A stretch of 64,000 bases of DNA from Opitutales bacterium. GTDB taxonomy: Bacteria; Verrucomicrobiota; Verrucomicrobiia; Opitutales; JABSRG01. Positions 3,881 to 20,188 of this stretch are shown here, one piece after another (the stretch's first letter is position 1; each line of letters opens with the position of its first letter). Below the pieces are notes generated by a model. It had not been told where the DNA came from, made no database searches, and worked only from the letters and a program-made list of their open reading frames with translations. The stretch is from NCBI GenBank assembly GCA_049599475.1, contig JBMYOQ010000007.1, positions 32,001 to 96,000 of the forward strand. The letters are read 5' to 3'. Position numbers and translations under genes: made by a program.

Positions 3881-5410
3881 ATGATACTTTGCCCACACAT
3901 TAGAATTTGCTTACTCGCACTGTCGTCGGTGTTGTCCACATCGCTTGTGTGGTCGCAAGATTCTCAATCGCAAACCCCGCGGAGTTTTCCGATGAATACG
4001 GTAAAAGACGGGGATGCTACGGAGCTTGAAGCCGGAACTCGTGAGGGGGCCGCTGCATCGTCGGATGAGCTGTCTCCCTATGAGCGCGGATTGCCCAGCA
4101 CCTACGAAAAGCGCGAGGGTGAAAACCCAGATGAGGCTCACGAGATGGTTGAGAACTGGGATGCAGAACATGCCGGAAATGCGTCGGTAGAGGAGGCTGC
4201 GGATGAGTACGAGGCCATGCACACAGGACTCGTGCACCACTACAGTAGCGCACAGGCCAAGGTGGAATTTGAACGTAGAATGCGTCAGGCTGAAGTCGCT
4301 ACAGTGACTCGAGATTTCGATCTCGCTGAGGCCATTTATACATCCATTTTGAAGGAGTTACCCTTGGACGATGAACAGCGGCGTGAAGCCATGTTGGACT
4401 TGGCGACACTTTGTAAATCTCACCGGAAGTATGGACGCATTGTCGTGGTTTATGAAAAGTTCCTGGATCAATTTCCTAGAGACCCCGAGGTGGCTACAAT
4501 CTCTATGGACTTGGGCTTGATCTACCGCTCAATGGGCGCATTTGAGTCGGCGTTGAGGAAATTCTATTCGGTGTTAAACCTCTCATTACTTCTGCCCAAA
4601 GAGCGAATTGATGCCTATCGAGATATATCGACCCGTGCGCAGATCGAGATCGCAGAAACTCATTTTCTCATGGGAGATTACGACCAGGCGGCACGCTTTT
4701 ACGAGCGTCTCTTGCGCCTCGAGTTATCCCCTCAAGAGCGGGCATCTGTTACCTTCCAGTTTGGTTATACGCACTTTTTGAACGACGATTTCCAGAGCAC
4801 AGTTTCCGTACTCAGAGACTACGCGGCGATGTTTCCAGGAGATGAGAAGATCCCGGAATCCCATTATTTATTGGCCGAGGCTTATCGAAGCCTCAATCAA
4901 ATGCAATCCGCCATGCAAGAGGTGTTGACGCTCCTGAAGACAAACGAGGTCGTAGGGGCGCAGAATCCAGCCCTGTGGCTATTCTGGAAGCAGAAGACCG
5001 GGAACCAGCTCGCCAACGCTTTCTATGAACGCGGGGATCACCTCAACGCCTTGAAGATTTACCAAGCGATGACTCCGCTGACTTCTTCGGTCACTTGGCA
5101 GGGCCCCATTATTTACCAAATCGGCCTTTGTTTTGAGCGTCTACGGATGGTGCCTAAGGCGATTGAGGCGTATAACATGTTGGACACTATGGACCAGTGG
5201 GCTGAAGAGGTCGCAAAGATGGAGAAGATGCCGGACGATTTGGCCTTTGTGCAAGAGATGGCGCGTTGGCGGAAAAGCCATCTCGAGTGGAGCCTCGATC
5301 GGGATGGTAAGCTCAATGATTTGTTCAATCGGTCGATCCTCAAAGAACCGGTCACTGAGACCTCTTCTGTGCAACCCGCAGTTGCTCCTCAAGAGCCACA
5401 GTCCTCTTAA
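3881..5410 (+). CDS. Exported tetratricopeptide-repeat protein
   Basis: Signal peptide; repeated TPR-like helices (YEKFLDQFPRDP, HYLLAEAY, YQIGLCFERL). Confidence 0.85.
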   Translation: MILCPHIRICLLALSSVLSTSLVWSQDSQSQTPRSFPMNTVKDGDATELEAGTREGAAASSDELSPYERGLPSTYEKREGENPDEAHEMVENWDAEHAGNASVEEAADEYEAMHTGLVHHYSSAQAKVEFERRMRQAEVATVTRDFDLAEAIYTSILKELPLDDEQRREAMLDLATLCKSHRKYGRIVVVYEKFLDQFPRDPEVATISMDLGLIYRSMGAFESALRKFYSVLNLSLLLPKERIDAYRDISTRAQIEIAETHFLMGDYDQAARFYERLLRLELSPQERASVTFQFGYTHFLNDDFQSTVSVLRDYAAMFPGDEKIPESHYLLAEAYRSLNQMQSAMQEVLTLLKTNEVVGAQNPALWLFWKQKTGNQLANAFYERGDHLNALKIYQAMTPLTSSVTWQGPIIYQIGLCFERLRMVPKAIEAYNMLDTMDQWAEEVAKMEKMPDDLAFVQEMARWRKSHLEWSLDRDGKLNDLFNRSILKEPVTETSSVQPAVAPQEPQSS

Positions 5411-9481: not shown

Positions 9482-10051
9482 CTAGCGTTTAAGAAGAAAC
9501 CCGAAAACAGCGCCGCATCCCCCGCCAACGAGGTGAGCAAACTGGGATACGTTGTCGTCGTTTGCGATAGCTGCAAAAATTTCGCTGCCTCCGTATAGTA
9601 TCGCGACAAGAAGAAAGGTCATTGGAATGGCCCCAGAGCGCATGCCAGAGAGGCTGCTCAGTAGGATCATCATAAAGGCGATACCGCTGGCACCGAGGAG
9701 GCCTCCGCTAGCGAAGACCGAATGGAGGAGCCCAGTTATCAGGGCGGTGATCACTGTCATCCCCAGCATCCGGCCGCTACCATATTTTTCTTCAAGAATG
9801 GGGCCGACCAGAAGGATAATGGTAAAGTTGGAGGCGAAGTGAGCCCAGCTGCCATGACCAATGATGTGGCTGACCCACTGGAAGTAGGCTAGAGGACTGC
9901 TCCAGTCCATGGGCGCGTATACCGTAAACGCCAAGCGGCTTGATGCGCCATCTGTAATCGCCGCAACCACGGTCGCCACAAACACAATAAGGGTGAAAGT
10001 CAGCGTAAACGGTGCGTTGTAGGAAATTTGAATGTTCTTGGGGAACTGCAC
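9482..10051 (-). CDS. Rhomboid family intramembrane serine protease
   Basis: H..HFASN, GASG catalytic Ser, AHLVGG catalytic His; multiple TM. Confidence 0.9.
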   Translation of the reverse strand: MQFPKNIQISYNAPFTLTFTLIVFVATVVAAITDGASSRLAFTVYAPMDWSSPLAYFQWVSHIIGHGSWAHFASNFTIILLVGPILEEKYGSGRMLGMTVITALITGLLHSVFASGGLLGASGIAFMMILLSSLSGMRSGAIPMTFLLVAILYGGSEIFAAIANDDNVSQFAHLVGGGCGAVFGFLLKR

Positions 10052-10183
10052 TGTCGAAAGTGATTCAGGACCTCATCGAAAAGGCAATAGTGCACCTGCT
10101 AAAAATACGGTTTCGACGTAAAAGTGGTATTGATCGGCAGAGTGAATTGGGTCGAAGTGGCGGGTATAAGCTAGGATCTCGCG

Positions 10184-10211
10184 TTGACAGATCCTCATCC
10201 GCGTCGATGCT
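10184..10211 (+). promoter_or_regulatory. Candidate sigma70 promoter for the 10325-16059 gene run
   Basis: Perfect TTGACA at 10184, 16-nt spacer, GATGCT -10-like hexamer. Confidence 0.35.
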
Positions 10212-10324
10212 AGAGCGTTAGTTCCTCGAAGCCTCTCGGACCCCATTGAAGGCTAGAGCCTAAGCAGAGCACGTGGCATGCAGCTCGCTAATGGGAACCC
10301 ATCGGCGCCCCGATCAATTGCATC

Positions 10325-11839
10325 ATGGACTTTCAGAGCCAATTTCAAACGGAATTCAAAAACTTAGCACTCAGAGGCAGTAGCCTCGCAGAAGATCTAG
10401 AAGCAGGCCAGGCAGCAACTCCTTTTGGTGATGCATTCCGTCAGCTGAACGATGCCTCGGGCGGTCGGGTCGTAAAAGCTGTGGTTCTTGGCATGGATGC
10501 AGATGCGACAAACGCGGCGCTTTCATGCTTACTGGGTCAAGACTACAATCTGTGCAAAGTGTGCATGCCTTCGCGACTAGGATACAGCGAGATTTCCCTG
10601 CAAGAACGCGGTTTCTTGCTGGAGGATGGCGATCAAAAATTGGAGTTTGATGATGTAGAAGCATTCGCAAGTGCGATTCAGGAGTCCAATGGTCCCTCGG
10701 CTCAGGAGAGAGTCAATTGGATGGACCCTGTGCGTCTCAAAATGAAGGCGCCCGCTCATCTCAGCGGCCTTTGTCTTCTCGTCCCGGATAGTCTGGAGAG
10801 TATCGCGGAGAAGCCCGCATTGCTATCAACCTTAGCAGATCAGACGGACTGGGCCTTCATCGCGGGCTACCCTGATCGCGATTTTTCGGCAGACCAAGTG
10901 ACTCATGTTCAGTTGATTCTGGATCAAGTCGTAGGATTTCAAGGACTGTTGATTCCATCCATGGAAAGGGAATCCGGTGACTCAGTCGCATGGTGGAAGC
11001 GGTTTCGAGCAGGTTTATCCCTCGGGGCTGTGAATACCGAGTCTGATCTACTACCTCGGCGATTAGCGATGCTGACCCATCGTCAGAGTGAGCTACGCCA
11101 ATATATCTTGGAGTCACGGGGTGCAGGAGATTTCAAAACGCATCTGAGACTGCTTAAAGACACTCTCGACCAGCAAGAAAAACAGCTGGCGGGCAAGCGT
11201 CGTATTATCGAAGGAAATGCTGAGGACGGCGTACAAGAGCGAGGTAGCACGCGTAAACAGGGGGACCCCCTACGCAATCGCTTGAAGGAGGATTCCGAGA
11301 GTATCAAATCGGCTGTGGAACGGGATACGAAACGCGATTTATCCCCTGAAGGTGCTCTTCATCAGCCCCTCAAGCAAGCGGCAGATGCATTCTCCGAGGC
11401 GGATATCGAGCAGACCATAAGCGGCTCGAAGATTAAACTGGGAGTGAATGCTGAGACGCGCACTTCCTACGGCACTCTGCTCGCGCAACTAGCCACAAAG
11501 CAAATCGAGGAAGATCAGCAGCTCTTCCAGGAAGGCCTGACAAGCACTCGAGAGTCTGTGGAGACAGAGCTCGAAGCTATTACAGGATTTCGCACTCAAT
11601 TGAATCTAGAGCCCTTGGACATGCGTGAGCTCCGGGATTCGGTTGAGGCTCTGGCATCTCCGGAGATTCAATATCGCGGAGAGATGGATAGACCCACTTT
11701 GATGAAGCGTTTCCAATCTGCCCGAAGTGGTATTATGGGCTTGATGATGGTTGGTATGATTGGGACTGGCTTTGCGGCCCTAAGTGGAGACTCGGAAGCG
11801 GGTGGCGGTGATTTTCGTACAATGCTCTACGTGGCATGA
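10325..11839 (+). CDS. Dynamin-like membrane protein with degenerate GTPase motifs, N-terminal part (probable frameshift at ~11833)
   Basis: AVVLGMDADATNAALSCLLGQD sits where the dynamin G1 (VVG.FS.GKS.LINALLG) would be; HLSGLCLLVPDSL at the G3 (DTPG) position; long helical stalk; TM near end. Confidence 0.55.
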   Translation: MDFQSQFQTEFKNLALRGSSLAEDLEAGQAATPFGDAFRQLNDASGGRVVKAVVLGMDADATNAALSCLLGQDYNLCKVCMPSRLGYSEISLQERGFLLEDGDQKLEFDDVEAFASAIQESNGPSAQERVNWMDPVRLKMKAPAHLSGLCLLVPDSLESIAEKPALLSTLADQTDWAFIAGYPDRDFSADQVTHVQLILDQVVGFQGLLIPSMERESGDSVAWWKRFRAGLSLGAVNTESDLLPRRLAMLTHRQSELRQYILESRGAGDFKTHLRLLKDTLDQQEKQLAGKRRIIEGNAEDGVQERGSTRKQGDPLRNRLKEDSESIKSAVERDTKRDLSPEGALHQPLKQAADAFSEADIEQTISGSKIKLGVNAETRTSYGTLLAQLATKQIEEDQQLFQEGLTSTRESVETELEAITGFRTQLNLEPLDMRELRDSVEALASPEIQYRGEMDRPTLMKRFQSARSGIMGLMMVGMIGTGFAALSGDSEAGGGDFRTMLYVA

Positions 11840-12276
11840 TTCCGTTCTTGGTGATAGGTTTTTTCTGGACCTACATTAGCTTCCGTAAAAAGGAGCAGGA
11901 GACCCTTCTGAAAGAAGTAGAAAAGCTACAAACGGGCGTACTTTCTGAATTGCGTCGATTGATGGCCGACATTTTGCGCCAGGCCCAGGGCCAAATTGTG
12001 CAGCACTACAGCAAACAGATTAAAGAAATGCAGAATCAGGTGAGCGCCTCGCTGGAGAGCTTCGAAGAACAGCGCCTCAAAGAGAGCACTGTGAAAAAGA
12101 AGAAGGCTCAGGAGCAAAAGCAGTCGGTCGAGAAGCGCTCGCGTCAACTCAAAGACTTTAAACGCGAGCTTGAGCGGTTGGCCCGTGAATCTGATGGGCT
12201 GGATACGCTTCAACTCAAATGGCTCCAGGACTGGATAGGGCGATTTAATCAGGGAAAACTCCCTCCACTTCAATAG
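11836..12276 (+). CDS. C-terminal part of the dynamin-like protein (TM + coiled coil)
   Basis: Starts mid-hydrophobic helix MIPFLVIGFFWTYISF, then charged coiled coil; one extra G at 11833 would fuse it with the upstream ORF (650 aa). Confidence 0.6.
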   Translation: MIPFLVIGFFWTYISFRKKEQETLLKEVEKLQTGVLSELRRLMADILRQAQGQIVQHYSKQIKEMQNQVSASLESFEEQRLKESTVKKKKAQEQKQSVEKRSRQLKDFKRELERLARESDGLDTLQLKWLQDWIGRFNQGKLPPLQ

Positions 12277-12347
12277 GTCCGAGCTGAGCCTGGGCCTACG
12301 CTCGGCGTCCTCAAATTTAAACAACTTACTTCAACCTTATCTAAATC

Positions 12348-14165
12348 ATGGCAAAGCAAAACGAGACAGATTCGACCACGGAACAGGCGAAACAAGCTGC
12401 CTCTGCGGCGAGCGAACAGGCCCAAGCATCCGCCCAAGATGCTAACCTGGCCGCACAGGAAGCTGCTGGATTTAGTGACTTAGCTTCCCAGAGTGCTTCT
12501 ACCGCGGATAGCCTAATGCGGCAAGCCGGCGAAGCGGCATCGTCGGCCGAGACGCAGGCTTTCGAGAGTCGGCAATCCGCCGAGACTGCTCAGCAGGCTT
12601 CTGCAGATGCGATGGACGATGCTGCTGCGAGTGCTTCTAGCGCCCAGGATGCTGCCTTCAAAGCAGGTGCTGCCGAAACTTCAGCGGCGCAGTCCAGTGA
12701 CAGTGCCGACCTCGCAGCTAGCCGAGCTACAGATGCAGGGCAGAGTGCAGATGATTCACAGGCAGCTGCGACGGATGCCACACGATCTGCCCGCGATGCT
12801 GGCGATGCCGCTACAGATGCTCAATCCGAGGCGGAAACTGCCTCGGACTCCGCGACTAGCGCGGAAAACAGCGCAGACTTCGCCGCTCGACAAGCCTCCG
12901 ACGCTTACCGCGCCGCTGAATTCGCCGAAGATCAAGCCAGAGACTCTGCGGCCTATGCCAACTATGCGAGGGAGCAAGCCTACGATGCCGCCGAGTATGC
13001 AGACATTGCTGAACAGCAAGCCGCGGATGCTAAGGACTCTGCTGAGGAGGCATTTGATCAGGCCGAGGCGGCTACTGATTCTGCAGATGAGGCCGCTGAC
13101 CAAGCCACGATCGCTACAGATCAGGCAAAAGCAGCGACAACCCAAGCAGGAATCGCAGAGGAGCAAGCGAAGGCTGCTACCGACTCTGCAGAAGTCGCTG
13201 CAGATCAGGCGGACAAGGCTACAGAATCGGCCAAGGATGCTCATGAGCAGGCTGAATTAGCAGCGGATTCAGCGAGCGAAGCTGCAGACTCTGCAACGAT
13301 CGCATCGGACTACGCGGAAGCCGCCATGTCGTCCAGTGCTGAAGCTGCCGCATTTGCAAAAGATTCTGAAGACGCCAGTGTAGCCAGCCAAGCATCGGCT
13401 GCTGAGTCTGCTGAAGCGGCTAAACTTGCCAAGGAAGAGCTTGCCGATGCAGTAGAAGCGAGTGAGCTGACCGATGAAGAATTAAAGGAAGCCACTGAAG
13501 CGTCGGATCGCGCTCAGGAGGAAATGCGCGAGGCCTCTGATGCTTCCGATGATGCCCAAGCAGAGGCCAAAGAGGCTGCAGAAGCCTCCGATGATGCTCG
13601 CGTGGAAGCTCAAGATGCTGCGGATGCCGCAACGCGTGCTGAATCTGAAGCCAATCAAGCCTCTGCAAGTGCGACTGCGGCAGATGGCTCAGAGGCTTCT
13701 GCCGCCAGCTCTGCCTCTCAGGCCGCGAGTTCAGCCGCGCAGGCTCGGGCCCAGTCAGCCGAGGCGGATAGCGCAGCCAAGATGGCGGAAAGCTATGAGA
13801 AAATGGCCAGCAGTGCATCGAGTACTGCAGAGGACTTTTCCGATGATGCACGCGGATTTGCTGATGTAGCACGACAAGAATACCAGAAAGCCGCGGGTCA
13901 CGCCAGCGACGCCTATGATGAGCTGAAGGATTTGCGCGACCTCAAGCTCGAGGCCGAAGACATTATCGATTTCCTCAAATCTGCGAAGGCCTCTGCTGAG
14001 ACTATGATCAACGAAATCGGCGATTTCCATACACGCGCTGAGGAGGCTGCTCTGAAAGCGGAAGCTGCTGCCGAGCGCGCAGAGCAAGCCGCGAGCACCG
14101 CTGGCGAACATGCCAATGCAGCCGACCGTTGGGCAGACATCGCCAAAGATCAAGCCATGGGCTAG
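12348..14165 (+). CDS. Alanine-rich acidic heptad-repeat coiled-coil protein (605 aa)
   Basis: Near-continuous AxxAxxx periodicity; A/S/D/E/Q-dominated; no signal peptide or TM. Confidence 0.85.
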   Translation: MAKQNETDSTTEQAKQAASAASEQAQASAQDANLAAQEAAGFSDLASQSASTADSLMRQAGEAASSAETQAFESRQSAETAQQASADAMDDAAASASSAQDAAFKAGAAETSAAQSSDSADLAASRATDAGQSADDSQAAATDATRSARDAGDAATDAQSEAETASDSATSAENSADFAARQASDAYRAAEFAEDQARDSAAYANYAREQAYDAAEYADIAEQQAADAKDSAEEAFDQAEAATDSADEAADQATIATDQAKAATTQAGIAEEQAKAATDSAEVAADQADKATESAKDAHEQAELAADSASEAADSATIASDYAEAAMSSSAEAAAFAKDSEDASVASQASAAESAEAAKLAKEELADAVEASELTDEELKEATEASDRAQEEMREASDASDDAQAEAKEAAEASDDARVEAQDAADAATRAESEANQASASATAADGSEASAASSASQAASSAAQARAQSAEADSAAKMAESYEKMASSASSTAEDFSDDARGFADVARQEYQKAAGHASDAYDELKDLRDLKLEAEDIIDFLKSAKASAETMINEIGDFHTRAEEAALKAEAAAERAEQAASTAGEHANAADRWADIAKDQAMG

Positions 14166-14192
14166 GCCAGGTAGACTGACACACTCTCACAC

Positions 14193-14501
14193 ATGACACC
14201 CGAAGAAGCATATAGAATTTTAGGCCTCGATCCCTCTGCTACGGAAGCTGAGCGGACCTCGAAAATGAAGGAGCAGCGCGAAGCTCTGGAAGCGAAACTC
14301 GCGCGCGCCCCCACGGCAGGTCTCAAGGAAAAATACCGCAAACATCTTCAGCAATTAGAAACGGCTGCAGAGGTCTTGGAGTCGAGCGAAGATGGATCGT
14401 CTTTACCGACCTTGGCCCCGGAGGCGCCAATTGAGCCACCGAAAGAGGTGGTGCGCAAAGCGCTTGCTCTTGGAAGCGCGTGCTCAAGCGCAGCGAGATA
14501 A
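14193..14501 (+). CDS. J-domain-like N-terminal fragment lacking HPD (probably frameshifted into the ankyrin ORF)
   Basis: MTPEEAYRILGLDPSATEAE is a J-domain helix I signature; no HPD; Pro-rich linker. Confidence 0.6.
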   Translation: MTPEEAYRILGLDPSATEAERTSKMKEQREALEAKLARAPTAGLKEKYRKHLQQLETAAEVLESSEDGSSLPTLAPEAPIEPPKEVVRKALALGSACSSAAR

Positions 14502-16059
14502 GCCCAATGTTGAGCGCTGGAAGGCGGAGGTCGCCAAGGAGAATTCTGGAGCTCTTTACGGAGCAGCGGATAAGGGAAATCTCAATGAAGTTCGCGGATT
14601 ACTTCTTGTAGGGGCGAATCCGGATGGAGGTAAATATTCAAAACCTCTTTCGGTGGCCCTACGTAGAGGGCACAATGATATCGCTACATTGCTGCTCAAG
14701 CGTGGGGCTAATCCGACGGATACGTATCCGTGGAGCAGTTTGAGCTCGGGGCGTCCATCTATCGATATGGTGAACGCGCTGCTCGACTCGGGGGCAAATC
14801 CGAATGAGGGCAACGTATTGAATGTGTATCGGACCATTCAAAAGCGAAATGCTTCTGAAGCGCTTAAGGTATTTGATGCGATGCGTGAGGTCGGAGGCAA
14901 TGGCTTCGATGAGGCTTGGTTTGGAAAGCTTATGGTCTTGGCGATGAACACCCGTGATAGAAAACTCATCGATTGGTTGGATGGGGTAGGTGTTACTTTA
15001 AAAGATCCTATGCGTGATTTTTGGGCGCATGAAACAGATGGAGTGTCTACCTTGGCATGGGCTGCTCAGGGGGGCGAATTGGAGTTTTTCAACTATGTGA
15101 AAGAAGCCACCGGAGGCACGCTGATGGAAGGCGAGCGCGCGGGGCAGGAGATCCGTTATGCCATGGCCGGAGGGAATTGGAACATCTACCAATATTTCCT
15201 GGAGCTTGGGCAAGATCCTATGAAATGGGATGACCAATACGTGAAAGATTTTTTCAACAGCGAAACGGGCGGTGGGCTCTGGGAGCTGTATATGGAGAGG
15301 AGCCATGTCGGAGAGCTGGCCGGACCGGTAGGCTTGGCAGTGCTCGGGGGCAATTTGGATATCCTGAAAGATATCCTGGAGCGCGGTGGGGATATTAATG
15401 AATTTTCTTCGTTAGCGTGGCAGGGGCCCGCGGGAAGCATGAATCTTTACCGTCCTTTAGCGGGAGCCTTGGGCGCTATTTGGGGGCCATCCACGGGAGG
15501 CCGGCGCGGGAAACTTTACCATAGGGAAATTGCGGTCTATTTGCTCGATCAAGGGGCCACACCGTTTGTCGATACCGTTACCGGACGCGGAAATCCCTAT
15601 CGCATGGTAACTGAATTTCTGGGAGCAGTTCGCCTGAAGGATCGAGAGCTCGTTAAGCGATTTTTAGATCTTGGTGCCGATCCCCTGTGGGTAGGAGAGC
15701 ATATAGATGAGTCCTCGCATACACCTTATCGGAACGCTGAGCGCTTGGAGCTAAACTGGGCAGTGGACATGATGCGCCCCAAGGTAGAAACTCCCGAATA
15801 CCTCAAGATCGTAGACAATTTTCGAAAAATCGAAGCCGCGCGCGTGGCTTATTTCAAGAAACATCCTAAAAAATGGCAGGGTATCAATTTTGAGGATCTG
15901 TCGAAGGAACCCGAAGGTGCCGAACTAGCAAAAATGGAATCAGTCTTGGGAGAGAATTACGCCAAACGCTTTTCTTATTTGGGCAAGAGCGAACCTTGGG
16001 GGTACGACATTTACGATAAGACTGGCCGGTTTTATTCCATTCCCTTGAGCGAGCTCTGA
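14392..16059 (+). CDS. Ankyrin-repeat protein (probable C-terminal part of a J-like/ankyrin fusion)
   Basis: ALYGAADKGNLNEVRGLLLVGANP, PLSVALRRGHNDIATLLLKRGANP, LAWAAQGG, LAVLGGNLDILKDILERGGDIN; first ~20 codons of the ORF look out of frame. Confidence 0.85.
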   Translation: MDRLYRPWPRRRQLSHRKRWCAKRLLLEARAQAQRDKPNVERWKAEVAKENSGALYGAADKGNLNEVRGLLLVGANPDGGKYSKPLSVALRRGHNDIATLLLKRGANPTDTYPWSSLSSGRPSIDMVNALLDSGANPNEGNVLNVYRTIQKRNASEALKVFDAMREVGGNGFDEAWFGKLMVLAMNTRDRKLIDWLDGVGVTLKDPMRDFWAHETDGVSTLAWAAQGGELEFFNYVKEATGGTLMEGERAGQEIRYAMAGGNWNIYQYFLELGQDPMKWDDQYVKDFFNSETGGGLWELYMERSHVGELAGPVGLAVLGGNLDILKDILERGGDINEFSSLAWQGPAGSMNLYRPLAGALGAIWGPSTGGRRGKLYHREIAVYLLDQGATPFVDTVTGRGNPYRMVTEFLGAVRLKDRELVKRFLDLGADPLWVGEHIDESSHTPYRNAERLELNWAVDMMRPKVETPEYLKIVDNFRKIEAARVAYFKKHPKKWQGINFEDLSKEPEGAELAKMESVLGENYAKRFSYLGKSEPWGYDIYDKTGRFYSIPLSEL

Positions 16060-16225
16060 TCGAAAGAAAGTGAGTTCTTTACGGTTTCTCAAAAAGGGTT
16101 CTCGTTTGTTCTGGTAAATCCACTCTTTCGAAAGGGAGGAGTGGCAGGCCGAAAATAGTTTTTGAGCAAGGGGCTAAAGAGGGTAGGCCTTCGTCGCCTG
16201 TACCCAAGCCTTTGTATTTAGTTTT

Positions 16226-17737
16226 TCAGTACTTTAATTTCAGCGCCTGAAGCTGGCTATATGCATCTGAAAGGTCGGCTGAGCCGTTCTGAGAGAACTG
16301 ACGCTCGACAGAAGCGCCGGTCTTTCCGTCTCGGGCGTGAACGGTGACCCTTCCGGTATCGTCGTACCCCATTTTTATCTCTACCGGGTAGTTTATCTCT
16401 GGGGAGCGTATTGGGCCGAAGCTAAATTTCCCAAGTGACTCAGGAGATGAGAAAGGGTCCTTTCGCTGAAGGATTTCTAACGAAAGTGTATCTTGCGTGC
16501 CATCTTGAGTGTAGACCGTGGTAGAACAATCCGTAGGCACCGGAACGTTCTTTTCGATCATTGGGTGGAAAATCGGTTTATTCTGTTTCCGATCGAAAAT
16601 GCGAATTCCCAGCTCATTCGAAGTCACCATCTGCTTGAGGGGAGGGGCGGCGGTCTTCTTTTGTCCGTGTAATTGCTCGGCGAGAAGTGCTGCGCCGTAG
16701 GCCACGGAAGCGTGGGGCTGAACACGCTTTATCCGGTCAGCAGACAATCCCGACATTGTGCGTGCAGCACGTTCCACACAGGGGACGAGGCTGGAGCCCC
16801 CGGTCAGAACAAGTTCGTCGATATCACTCCAGGTGAGTTGCTGGTGCTCCAGGGCGCGCTCGCAGACTTCTTGGCAGGCCTCCAACCAAGGTTCCGCAGC
16901 GGCTTCGAATTGTTTTCGGGTAAATGTAACCTTGAGCGAGCGGCCTCCTAGGATAAGTGCCTGGCTTATGATTTCCGTGCTGGGGTCGGATAATTGTATC
17001 TTGGCATCCGTGGCAAACATTCGCAGGCGTTGCATCGCTTCTGTGTCCGAGCGAATGTCGCTACGAAATTGTCCCTGATACTGCTCTGCGACGATATCAA
17101 TGATGACTTCGTCAAAATTTTTCCCGCCAATGTTATCCGACCCCTCGGTGGCAATTGCGTAAAGGCCATCCGGGGTTGCCGAAAGAATCGTGGCATCGAA
17201 TGTCCCGCCGCCGATGTCGAAAACGAAGATCAAACGCTCGTCGTTTGAGGAATTTAAGCCGAAATAGGTAGCGGCGGCCAGGGGCTCTTCGACGAGACCT
17301 AAGACGGGAATGTCGGCGAGCCGTCCGGCGTTCACAGTGGCCAGGCGCTGTGCTTCATTGAAATGAGCCGGGACAGTAATCACTGCTCCGGTCATGGACT
17401 CATTGCATGCCGCCTCGGCGTCTTCCTTCAGTTTTTTGAGGATCAAGGCAGATATTGCCTCAGGCGTATATGTGCGTCCCGAAGAGTCGGTAAAGGCAGG
17501 AGGGCCGTCTTCCCCCATGCTCAGTTTTGCAAATCTGCATATAGGGAGCAATGAATCCTCCTCGAGAATATTCTCAACGAGATCTCCAACGACGCATGTT
17601 CCGTCTGCTATGTGAACGACGGATGGGGTCTGGAAGCGTTTAGCGTCCTCTTTGCTGGGGCACAAAGTAGGCGTGCCGGAAGCATTAATGTAGCTGACGA
17701 GCGAAAAGGTGGTTCCGAGATCAATTCCTACAAGCAT
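16226..17737 (-). CDS. Specialised Hsp70-family protein (no alpha-helical lid)
   Basis: GIDLGTTFS, TVPAHFNEAQR, EPLAAA, DIGGGTFD, LTGGSS; SBD-beta present; ends at 503 aa. Confidence 0.93.
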   Translation of the reverse strand: MLVGIDLGTTFSLVSYINASGTPTLCPSKEDAKRFQTPSVVHIADGTCVVGDLVENILEEDSLLPICRFAKLSMGEDGPPAFTDSSGRTYTPEAISALILKKLKEDAEAACNESMTGAVITVPAHFNEAQRLATVNAGRLADIPVLGLVEEPLAAATYFGLNSSNDERLIFVFDIGGGTFDATILSATPDGLYAIATEGSDNIGGKNFDEVIIDIVAEQYQGQFRSDIRSDTEAMQRLRMFATDAKIQLSDPSTEIISQALILGGRSLKVTFTRKQFEAAAEPWLEACQEVCERALEHQQLTWSDIDELVLTGGSSLVPCVERAARTMSGLSADRIKRVQPHASVAYGAALLAEQLHGQKKTAAPPLKQMVTSNELGIRIFDRKQNKPIFHPMIEKNVPVPTDCSTTVYTQDGTQDTLSLEILQRKDPFSSPESLGKFSFGPIRSPEINYPVEIKMGYDDTGRVTVHARDGKTGASVERQFSQNGSADLSDAYSQLQALKLKY

Positions 17738-17775
17738 GTAGCGCGTTTAGGAAATCTGTGTTGGTTTCCGAGACC

Positions 17776-18120
17776 TCAAAAGGGCACGTCGTCTTCTGCT
17801 GAGTAATCCGTGGTGTCTTCTGGAATGGGAGGCTCGTCACCGCCTGATTGCGCCGCTGCGCCTTTCTCGAGTTTCCAGGCATTGAGATTTACATAGTAGC
17901 GACCGTTGTATTCGCGCCCCGCGATATCGAAATGGACGGTCACCTCTTCGCCCTCCTTTACATCGTCGAGCATGGATGTCTTGTCCTTCAAAGCTCCGAA
18001 GCACAGATCCTGCGGATACTTGTCGGGCACAGTTACCACGAATTCACGCTTCGTGAATCCGCTGTTGAAAGTCTGCATATCAAAAATCTTCTTTACGGTA
18101 CCAGAGGTGGAATAAGCCAT
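17776..18120 (-). CDS. DUF3127 family OB-fold protein (SSB-like, acidic DDVPF tail)
   Basis: GFTKREFVV, YPQ, GREYNGRYYVNLNAWKLE, C-terminal EDDVPF. Confidence 0.85.
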   Translation of the reverse strand: MAYSTSGTVKKIFDMQTFNSGFTKREFVVTVPDKYPQDLCFGALKDKTSMLDDVKEGEEVTVHFDIAGREYNGRYYVNLNAWKLEKGAAAQSGGDEPPIPEDTTDYSAEDDVPF

Positions 18121-18286
18121 TGGTCTAGCCAAGCAGCTTCACGAAAACTGCCAAGCGCGGAATCGTGAAAAATGAGTTTGCAGGGAATGGGCTAGCCGAA
18201 GTGAGGCTAGGCTCCAGGTGTTCAGAAAAATCATTTTCGATCCAATTGATCGGCTAGAGCCGCATAAAACACCGATACGACACTTA

Positions 18287-20188
18287 CTAGTTGAGGTTTT
18301 CTCCTAAAAACTCGAGCACGCGCTCGTAGTATTTGATCCGGTTTTTCATCGATGCGACACCATGTTGCTCTGCGGGAAGGTAGAGGGTTTCCGGCGTGTT
18401 TCCGGCTGATTTTAGTGCACTCGCCATGTCTCGAGTTTGTTCTACGTCGACAACGCGATCCGCCTTACCATGAGCAAGGAGAACAGGCTTGTTTATTTTG
18501 TGGGCGTTGTGCCTTGGCGAAATTGATCGGATGTAGTTTTGCTCCTCATCGGGATCTCCGAGGATTTCGACCCACTTGTCATAGGCGTAAGTCCCCTGTC
18601 TATGTTTCCAAAACGAATCCTGCCAGTTCTCAATCTGTTCTTCCATATCGAACACTCCCGCATAGGAGATGGAGCACTGGAACAAACCGGGCTCGAACAT
18701 CTGCGCGGCGACGGATGCGTAGCCTCCGAAACTGGCTCCCATGATCGCTAATCGATTACCGTCGATCCACCCTTTCTTCACGAGCTGTTGGGTGCCGTCT
18801 GCGACATCTTTCACCATGTCTTCGAAGTCACCACTATATCTGCCCGAATTCGATCTGCCGTATCCTGAGGATCCTCTAAAGTTTAGCTGAAAGACTGCGT
18901 AGCCTCTGTTTGCGAGCAATTGAACTTCCTCGTCATATCCCCATGTGTCGCGTGACCAGGGGCCCCCATGAACAAGTGCGACCATCGGATAGGGTCCTGC
19001 GCTGGGAGGACCTGGGAGCGTGAGGTAGCTTTGTAGTTGTACGCCATCGCGCATTTTCAGGCCGAGCGCGTATTGTTGATTTAAAAGAGCCTTATCGATG
19101 TCTGAATTCTTCTCTAGCTCAAAAACCAGTGCTTTTTTCGATAGATCGATCACGCGATATATGCCTGGATGCCGATCAGACATCGAGTAAATCAAAATGC
19201 GATTCTTTGATTTAGAAAAACTGGTGATGCGATTGATCGTATCGGGAAACAGTTGGTCTACGGAATTTTGTATGGCTTCCATATCGCGATCGAACCAGAC
19301 GGTAGTAGGTCGTTTCTTATGGTAGTTTAATCCTAAAACTTCACCGGTGTATGGTGATTGTACGAGATAACTCGTATCCCAAATATCGAATTCTTCATCT
19401 GACCACACTTTGGTGACTTCTTGGTTGCCCGTTAGAGAGACGGAAAATAGGGAGGCATTGTTGGCGTCGCTCTCATAGGCGTTTATCCAAAATGTTTTTG
19501 CCTAGCGATCATAGCCGAGCGTTTCATATCGGGTTCCGACATCGTTGAGCTTGTCGAATAGGTGCCACGTCCCTTTCGCTTCATCGTGGTAGTAGACATC
19601 GATTTCTCCTTCCTTGTAAATCACTGAACATGCAAGGTCGCCCTTTCCATCGGACCACCAGCTCAACTGTTTGCCGCCGATTTGATCGGCACTATCTAGT
19701 TTGCGAGTATGACCATTTTTTGCATTAAAGTTTACGGTTCTCGGGTTACCGGAGACTGTTGAGTAGAGTCGTGTGAGCAGAAGACTCTCATCGCCTGGAA
19801 GAGGCTCTAGAATACCCAGTCCATCATACTGATTAAGCATCCTTACTTTACGAGAACCTGCTTTGGCAACGAACAAGCCGCCTGCGTATTTGTTCTTTAA
19901 AAGCAGGTTGAACGCTACCAATTCGTCACTCACCCAGTGTATGGTATTTACATCATCGCTATTGCTGCCTTTTAGCTTCTGAGCATCATTTTTCTCGAGA
20001 TCCCAAATGATTGCATCGATCCGGTCTTTGGATGGGTATTTGAATGCAATGTAGTCTCCATTTGGGGACAACTCGGCCCCAGCAATTGAGTCGGGTTTGA
20101 ACAAGTCCTCTAGCTCCATGGTTTTGGCGCTGCAGTGCAACGCCGCGCAGACTCCAAAGAGGTACAATAGTTTGTTAAAAGTTCTCAT
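18287..20188 (-). pseudogene. S9 (prolyl oligopeptidase) family peptidase interrupted by in-frame TAG at 19502-19504
   Basis: ORFs 19502-20188 and 18287-19408 share a frame with no other stop between; signal peptide, beta-propeller, VHGGPW, GASFGGY, HGKADRVV, EQHG triad. Confidence 0.85.

Follow-up and report, generated by a model that had tools for sequence, protein, structure and literature searches.

We describe a rare and conserved four-gene bacterial cassette whose composition suggests a chaperone-powered response at the membrane. The cassette lies in a 64,000 nt stretch of DNA from an Opitutales bacterium (contig JBMYOQ010000007.1, positions 32,001 to 96,000), referred to below as the window, between a rhomboid gene and a DUF3127 gene. 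Opitutales and other Verrucomicrobiota are the nearest named relatives of this DNA. It comprises six open reading frames (ORFs), five on the + strand and one on the - strand, which correspond to four genes, as A and C are each split into two ORFs. Gene A encodes a dynamin-fold membrane protein that lacks GTPase motifs, gene B a putative alanine rod, gene C a J-like domain (J*) followed in relatives by a membrane helix and an exchangeable outer domain, and gene D an Hsp70 without a lid (Hsp70*). The four genes are co-located far beyond chance and are inherited together, and they very probably make up one functional unit. As far as the literature search goes, the gene system is undescribed, its mechanism is one we infer, and the pairing of a dynamin gene with an adjacent Hsp70 gene has been noted before. 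In window positions, the ORFs are:

10325..11839, + strand: gene A, 5' part, 504 aa; dynamin-like G-domain without a P-loop, helical neck, stalk and first helix of the membrane hairpin
11836..12276, + strand: gene A, 3' part, 146 aa; remainder of the second membrane helix and return stalk helix
12348..14165, + strand: gene B, 605 aa; acidic, alanine-rich heptad rod (predicted)
14193..14501, + strand: gene C, 5' part, 102 aa; J* at residues 1-77, frame break near 14450
14392..16059, + strand: gene C, 3' part, 555 aa; ankyrin-repeat outer domain, in another frame than J*
16226..17737, - strand: gene D, 503 aa; lidless Hsp70 (Hsp70*), intact

All six ORFs lie where a first-pass annotation of the sequence had placed them. 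That annotation described three co-oriented units converging on an Hsp70 gene; the genes are there, but because A and C are both broken the co-oriented part consists of five ORFs, and the orientation of the Hsp70 gene is not conserved. Its proposal that the genes form one module is borne out by the neighbourhood search. Beside the window, 28 loci were counted (L003-L029 and L036), with repeated stretches entered once, except that L025, a likely duplicate of L022, was kept. Near gene A, J* is found in 18 of the 28 loci, B in 16 and Hsp70* in 12. The 10 loci without J* end inside A or within 1.4 kb after it; for the 12 that lack B, the end comes within 2.7 kb. The full set of four genes is present at L003, L011, L012, L015, L020, L021, L024 and L036, and also at L019, where B is cut by the contig end. 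Hsp70* was present in all five further genomes checked, one match covering only residues 1-87. The genes stay together in different arrangements (A-B-C(n) facing D; D-C-A-B; A-C-x-B facing D) and between unrelated flanks; Hsp70* is co-oriented with the rest in L017, L019, L020, L021, L027 and L028.

The cassette is conserved over several Verrucomicrobiota lineages and is rare in each sample taken. Gene A occurs in three of 400 genomes sampled from the phylum (G102, G397 and G424) and in one of 40 relatives of the window's genome; a first genome scan with P0002, an intact gene A relative, as the only query found nothing. Strong J* matches (E<1e-30) fall in the same three of the 400 genomes, with weak matches (E about 1e-6) in two others, G246 and G298. 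Hsp70* is present in G102 and G424 and in no other genome of the 400, the assembly of G397 being in about 240 contigs. Outside the phylum, the homologues named from Gammaproteobacteria are an A protein of Simiduia and an Hsp70* of Aliikangiella, and at least five of 30 more distant A clusters apparently share a contig with one of 120 listed Hsp70* proteins, as judged from an indirect match. The identity matrices of A, J* and Hsp70* are correlated (Spearman 0.61-0.80 over 12 loci), as kinship alone would make them. Carriage on mobile elements was considered and rejected: P0041 has no match among 72,556 plasmid and 50,697 phage records, and the only viral-contig proteins among the matches listed are Hsp70s of at most 35% identity.

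The product of gene A, about 650 aa long, combines a dynamin fold with a membrane hairpin. The fold, which had been predicted for the 10325 protein, was confirmed on an AF2 model of P0002 (pLDDT 82, pTM 0.54). Every Foldseek row listed for this model is a dynamin-superfamily protein: BDLP (E 1.8e-12), IniA (2.7e-12) and Cj-DLP give the best scores, between 2e-12 and 6e-12, and LeoA is among the matches. VIA-align matches the model best with mitofusin-2 (Z 17.2, rmsd 10.5, 340 residues aligned) and Fzo1 (Z 16.2), and the ESM Atlas puts P0002 next to Dynamin_N clusters (0.94). The model contains the combination that defines the superfamily, namely a G-domain, a helical neck or stalk and a membrane-contact tip, the tip consisting of two hydrophobic helices at residues 470 and 503. 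Its modelled fold and its domain order (N-terminal neck helix, G-domain, stalk, membrane hairpin, return helix) resemble those of BDLP, IniA, Cj-DLP1/2, LeoA and mitofusins. A profile search collects 471 clusters (50% identity) for the family at an E of 0.001 or less, and 144 of these have an E of 1e-30 or less.

Unlike bacterial dynamin-like GTPases, gene A products are devoid of recognisable GTPase motifs. Under the customary definitions of G1, G3 and G4, and among the 149 family members of 560-770 aa, the G1 P-loop GxxxxGK[ST] occurs in one, G3-type D[TSL]PG in three and G4 [NT]KxD in six, and G3 and G4 are missing at their strands. In the P0002 model, strand 49-55 enters helix 58-69 through two residues at the place where a P-loop would be, and the alignment rows shown have no Asp at strand 148-153, the expected G3 site; a loose DxxG is present somewhere in the first 300 residues of 93 of the 149 members, its position unmapped. 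Pfam finds no Dynamin_N or GTPase match in 77 distant members, two of which give coiled-coil-type matches only. Pfam, NCBIfam and PADLOC searches of the window's ORFs supply no family name for gene A, and a 112-sequence profile of the family has no dynamin match among PDB sequences. The losses are family-wide and do not reflect decay of the window's copy. No gene for an active dynamin partner was seen in the loci or in the window's genome. Conservation is highest in the N-terminal helix and around the base of the stalk, next to the membrane hairpin, which would indicate selection on interaction surfaces and not on a catalytic site. A dynamin-related pseudoenzyme has reportedly been found in mitochondria. 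The second, third and sixth ranks of the ESM Atlas search with P0002 are unnamed clusters of about 540 aa, two of them commonest in Verrucomicrobiota, with MMR_HSR1 in 19-29% of members or in none; these are possibly other degenerate dynamin families.

Gene C follows what appears to be a fixed plan: a constant J*, a single membrane helix and, at the C-terminus, a binding domain that can be swapped. The J* family, defined by the first 77 residues, includes at least 186 proteins. In place of HPD, the J* of the window carries the motif A-P-T-x-G-L-x-x-K-Y-R; among 120 listed J* proteins, HPD occurs within the first 110 residues of one and an AKAPTPGL-type motif in 119. The J* profile matches the J-domains of Sec63 and DnaJ weakly (E 0.003-0.07, over positions 3-64), hhalign against E. 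coli DnaJ returns a probability of 22%, and Pfam DnaJ gives below-cut-off scores in two of 19 J* proteins. One transmembrane (TM) helix after J* is predicted in all 109 proteins of at least 400 aa, by a hydropathy window with a threshold of our own, and in 108 it starts at residue 108-135. The domains beyond this helix include PEGA, FGE-sulfatase, Sel1, PDZ, TonB-C, a CXXCXGXG zinc finger, ankyrin or an unknown sequence. The description of C as a J-like/ankyrin protein stands for the window, where the outer domain matches Pfam Ank (E 1.4e-12); in the family, ankyrin is one of many outer domains, and a TM helix is normal in relatives. Loci have from one to four J* genes, and in paralogues of the same locus the J* domains are 53-87% identical while the last 250 aa have no BLAST match in seven of nine pairs. 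Some of the J* proteins at L010, L011, L012 and L015 end in the CXXCXGXG zinc finger, like the central domain of DnaJ; it sits beyond the membrane helix, and PF00684 appears in many matches of the J* family. Two in-module ORFs, L024:13634-14278 and L028:3049-4239, have no Pfam match, and the latter may be the out-of-frame rest of a short J* ORF at 2188-2952.

At one locus the outer domains are the target of a diversity-generating retroelement (DGR). L019 holds a full DGR within the module, with a reverse transcriptase (RT; RVT_1 E 1e-16), bAvd (E 2e-15) and template and variable repeats:

L019 712-10116: module stretch with the DGR, containing RT, bAvd, template repeat and J*-PEGA-FGE genes
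L019 3558-4919: RT
L019 3197-3568, opposite strand to RT: bAvd
L019 2852-2994: template repeat, with a second template-like copy at 4656-4798

The variable repeats are at the ends of two J*-PEGA-FGE genes. The template and the 3' end of the J*-PEGA-FGE gene differ at 17 of 143 positions, and all 17 are template adenines. The bAvd-RT stretch lies between the copies of a 48-base direct repeat (3113, 4905). At L026:318-1850, an RT and an AAC/AAT-rich template-like repeat lie directly upstream of gene A; the target gene lies beyond the contig. In the window, the surroundings of the module showed no DGR.

Gene D encodes an Hsp70 (Pfam HSP70, E 1.5e-84) and belongs to a distinct family of these. Hsp70* proteins form a family of narrow length, 115 of 120 listed members being 490-540 aa and most 501-506; residues were scored against E. 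coli DnaK in these 115. The nucleotide-binding domain with its catalytic residues, the hallmark of Hsp70s, is in place: D8, G10, T11, T12, E171, D194, G197, T199, D201, K270, G341 and G342 are kept in 115 of 115, and K71 is invariant in 94 of 94 (placed by eye at K70, where the automatic alignment was gapped). N13, E230 and R345 are changed. The interdomain linker is replaced and the chain ends at about residue 503, leaving no lid. R167, N170, T173, E206, E217, Q378, V389, L392, D393 and D477 are kept in none of the 115. In DnaK, R167 and Q378 contact the HPD aspartate, L391 the histidine and P419 the proline, and E206, D211, E217 and D477 are electrostatic contacts for DnaJ (PMC8215388). With HPD gone in J* and nearly every DnaJ contact changed in Hsp70*, the loss in J* is mirrored in the Hsp70, and the two are probably a cognate pair. 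The curated DnaK and HscA models score far below their cut-offs on the Hsp70* of the window, and an ordinary DnaK is encoded separately in the same genome. The losses of P-loop, HPD, and Hsp70 linker and lid, which the first-pass annotation had read from single proteins, therefore hold across the respective families.

The product of gene B is 33% Ala with a net charge of -91. Its Ala autocorrelation is 0.37 at lag 7 and 0.45 at lag 14, and this 7- and 14-residue periodicity is common to four relatives tested, which supports a long alanine coiled coil or helical rod. A TM scan of the protein finds no membrane helix; a short Leu/Ile-rich segment lies near the C-terminus. Complete counterparts measure from about 360 to 605 aa, and the L008 ORF is shorter, at 273 aa. 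The ESM Atlas gives B scores of 0.76 only, and the model is poor.

We tentatively propose that the four genes encode an inner-membrane, receptor-gated, Hsp70-driven membrane-remodelling machine used in conflict, a reading to which we give slightly less than an even chance as a whole. The variable domain would lie in the periplasm, with J* on the cytoplasmic side. J* and Hsp70* would act as a private pair, with an interface rewired off HPD/R167 and in this way insulated from DnaK and DnaJ. Binding of a ligand by the outer domain in the envelope would cluster J* domains, which recruit Hsp70*, and the ATP cycle of Hsp70* would open, polymerise or recycle the GTPase-dead dynamin on the membrane, replacing the GTP motor. 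Without a GTP site, A needs another switch, and since Hsp70* is the only NTPase of the unit, we propose it as the driver; that A is its client is evenly balanced between true and false. A lidless Hsp70 should bind and release fast because the lid slows dissociation (PMC8215388), and such fast cycling suits the remodelling of a polymer. B would be a cytoplasmic rod that acts as a scaffold, a spacer or another client. Conflict at the envelope, whether phage entry or contact with a predator or competitor, is the likeliest purpose, because receptor arrays and DGR point to a changing ligand; we hold this purpose to be no better than evenly supported. More doubtful is the stronger claim that the cassette represents a new class of transmembrane signalling machine, in which an Hsp70 stands in for the GTPase motor of a dynamin and envelope receptors mutated in places by DGRs act through an HPD-free J* and a private lidless Hsp70 on a pseudo-dynamin polymer that answers or blocks the invader.

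Several observations weigh against this proposal. Whole-chain TM-scores between the P0002 model and dynamins are 0.2-0.33 and the pTM of the model is modest, as given above; the low TM-scores may come from differing hinge angles. The J-domain ancestry of J* is suggested weakly, by low profile scores. P419 survives in every one of the 115 Hsp70* proteins and L390 in 98, so that the docking site is partly kept, and loss of DnaJ contacts can also occur in specialised Hsp70s that have no matching partner. L018, the sole long locus without Hsp70*, has none within 10 kb of A and carries the gene elsewhere in its genome. A DGR target was verified at L019 only, and the outer domains scanned include no toxic or enzymatic effector. 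A defence role, as the first-pass annotation had suggested, gains nothing from PADLOC, which gives no convincing match for A or Hsp70: with the 2023 version of PADLOC-DB, P0002, P0187 and the B and C proteins of L036 have no match at 1e-5, and the ORFs of the window produce weak or ankyrin-only scores. The defence neighbours were scanned in 69 proteins from 18 loci (61 of 79 picked, the dropped ones mostly repeated flanks, and 8 added), with no control set. Clear cases occur at two or three of the 18 loci, the other matches looking like common enzyme domains: a defence island by A with a PtuB-like HNH nuclease, a PDC-S14 protein and a type I restriction subunit (L016:835-9869), a TIR-domain neighbour at L006, and perhaps a Dam-type methylase and the RT at L019. 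Most flanks look like housekeeping genes. Overall, the interpretation of the first-pass annotation is partly supported.

The same machine could instead serve housekeeping, as an envelope-stress or membrane-repair system in which the outer domains sense damage to the cell wall or membrane and A patches or stabilises the inner membrane in the manner of IniA/IniC or DynA. We consider this unlikely, though it accounts for much of the evidence: the nearest folds are IniA, BDLP and mitofusin, the flanks are mostly housekeeping genes, PEGA and Sel1 are described as peptidoglycan-associating in PMC7159879, and HscC with DjlB/DjlC is a membrane-linked stress pair (PMC8215388). It sits poorly with the presence of A in so few of the sampled genomes and relatives, and a constant stress signal fits poorly with tandem receptors bearing unrelated outer domains and with adenine-specific DGR mutagenesis.

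A role in biogenesis or display is a further unlikely reading. Here Hsp70*, A and B would fold, cluster or deliver the receptors, by way of tubes, vesicles or contact sites in adhesion or tethering, and J* would be a sorting tag. Every variable protein opens with the same J*, which is what one would expect of a targeting tag; the top fold matches include mitofusin and the tethering Cj-DLP pair; and the lengths of complete B proteins are ruler-like. DGR-diversified FGE domains are also phage-tail adhesins (PMC7159879). The helix after J*, however, is of the kind that typically anchors a protein in the inner membrane, and the locus maps show no gene for export or for the outer membrane that accompanies the cassette. 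Finally, a mere adjacency of two independent units that make no contact, one pairing Hsp70* with the J* receptors and the other pairing A with B as structural proteins, is very improbable: the unlinked Hsp70* of L018 and the varying gene order agree with it, but A, J* and Hsp70* mark the same few of 400 genomes, stay together through rearrangements, and apparently share contigs in the distant A clusters matched indirectly.

Among known systems, the closest to the proposed receptor-gated machine in gene content is the 'chaperone clade' of cyanobacterial BDLPs, described in PMC5827413 as P-loop dynamins with a DnaK-domain gene downstream, of untested function; its authors suggest that the dynamin and DnaK activities are linked. 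The likeness lies in the Hsp70 gene beside a dynamin gene, here in 12 of 28 loci, the others being cut except L018. The difference lies in the extended P-loop of the cyanobacterial BDLPs (PMC5827413), which is absent in the gene A family, and the description of the clade, in the text consulted, makes no mention of a J-like receptor, an alanine rod or variable outer domains.

E. coli HscC and its partners are the nearest chaperone pair to the Hsp70 and J* genes: a specialised Hsp70 beside the membrane-anchored DjlB and DjlC, which are tail-anchored and serve it alone (PMC8215388). A specialised Hsp70 gene beside that of a J-like protein with a predicted membrane helix is likewise found here. 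In contrast to that system, J* is without HPD, a motif of which DjlB and DjlC reportedly keep a version, and continues into a mid-chain TM helix with large outer domains that vary; the Hsp70 chain stops near residue 503, and the unit also includes a dynamin and a rod.

Predicted NTP-dependent conflict systems built on MoxR-vWA ternary modules (iSTAND, VMAP) and DO-GTPase/GAP1 combine, according to PMC7159879, a constant chaperone-type core with variable TM-preceded PEGA, Sel1, PDZ or FGS domains and DGR links, as the present cassette does, and some GAP1-N2 loci there contain an Hsp70 as well as a DnaJ fusion. Unlike these systems, the cassette shows no MoxR, vWA, DO-GTPase, GAP1, tubulin or GrpE in locus maps and Pfam results, with no search aimed at GAP1 or DO-GTPase. 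The word 'dynamin' does not occur in the main text of PMC7159879.

The anti-phage dynamins Eleos/LeoABC and DynA share with gene A a dynamin-fold membrane protein; they are GTPases with intact motifs, whereas A is without GTPase motifs. Against LeoBC there is a weak coiled-coil score only (E 0.048). The Eleos/LeoABC and DynA systems are not known to include an Hsp70. A works-like precedent for Hsp70 control of a membrane-remodelling polymer is chloroplast Hsp70, which is said to act on VIPP1 oligomers; VIPP1 differs in being ESCRT-III-like and not a dynamin, with a general Hsp70 and no receptor array. As the cassette lacks the P-loop, HPD and the linker and lid, and has no convincing PADLOC match, it belongs to none of the known systems that these features define. 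The literature search found no description of the four-gene system; most subscription papers and the supplements, of which those of PMC7159879 and PMC5827413 could list such loci, lay outside the search.

The copy in the window is probably a decaying remnant, with A and C probably a pseudogene pair. Both breaks are frame changes. The halves of gene A are out of frame with each other and overlap in an ATGA at 11836-11839; in 24 close relatives the gene is a single ORF of 638-687 aa. The two halves fill the family alignment end to end without the loss of a residue, and the break falls in the membrane hairpin. It looks recent because both halves are still about 50% identical to the protein of L036, the nearest intact relative. 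Assembly error was considered as a cause of the A break and ruled out, as two runs span the junction with no gap: X1, probably the source run, and X3, which belongs to a different study (a contig of 336 bases over 11573-11908, depth 2.7). The break in gene C is spanned by run X1 alone, possibly the source run. Reading in three frames and a TM scan show the membrane helix, at about residues 108-135 in relatives, to be absent from all three frames of the window's C, so a deletion, rather than the slip of a single base, probably caused the break, and restoring one frame would leave C still without its membrane helix. An intact J*-TM-ankyrin counterpart is found at L011:13670-14755. The neighbouring S9 prolyl-oligopeptidase-like gene (18287-20188, - strand), whose halves share a frame and are separated by one in-frame TAG (19502-19504), makes a third broken gene inside 10 kb of the window. 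Split-gene candidates number 16 among the 1192 ORFs with paralogues in the window's genome, about half of them looking like natural two-gene forms, and three breaks in 10 kb where split genes are uncommon genome-wide suggest local decay.

That the window's copy still works as split genes, with A made in two chains through coupling at the ATGA overlap and J* acting on its own in soluble form, is improbable. The position of the A break in the membrane hairpin, with no residue lost, the identity retained by both halves, the recurrence of the break in the run of a second study and the intactness of the window's B and Hsp70* favour it. It has to contend with the absence of another split A in the 24 close relatives or in the loci examined, with the loss of both membrane helix and frame in C, with the stop in the adjacent S9 peptidase gene and with the scarcity of splits in the genome.

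About seven more probable broken genes are indicated by paralogues in the window's genome (contigs C1, C2, C18, C49, C71, C87 and C91). No sigma-70-like promoter was found in window 10000-18300, and no shared upstream motif across loci was seen by eye. The intergenic sequence at 16092-16156, between C and the Hsp70 gene, has look-alikes on several other contigs of run X1 and is possibly a repeated element or a terminator.

With the window's copy broken, the function is best studied in an intact one, and the intact set (P0002, P0187) comes from a cultured species, which brings tests within reach. If the proposed Hsp70-driven machine is real, gene A would represent a bacterial dynamin family working without GTP. 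One truncated bacterial Hsp70 derivative would acquire a role, the functions of such derivatives being called an open question in PMC13580251. Hsp70* and J* would constitute an orthogonal Hsp70/J pair, found in nature, that does without HPD; PMC8215388 reports this motif as required in every system tested.

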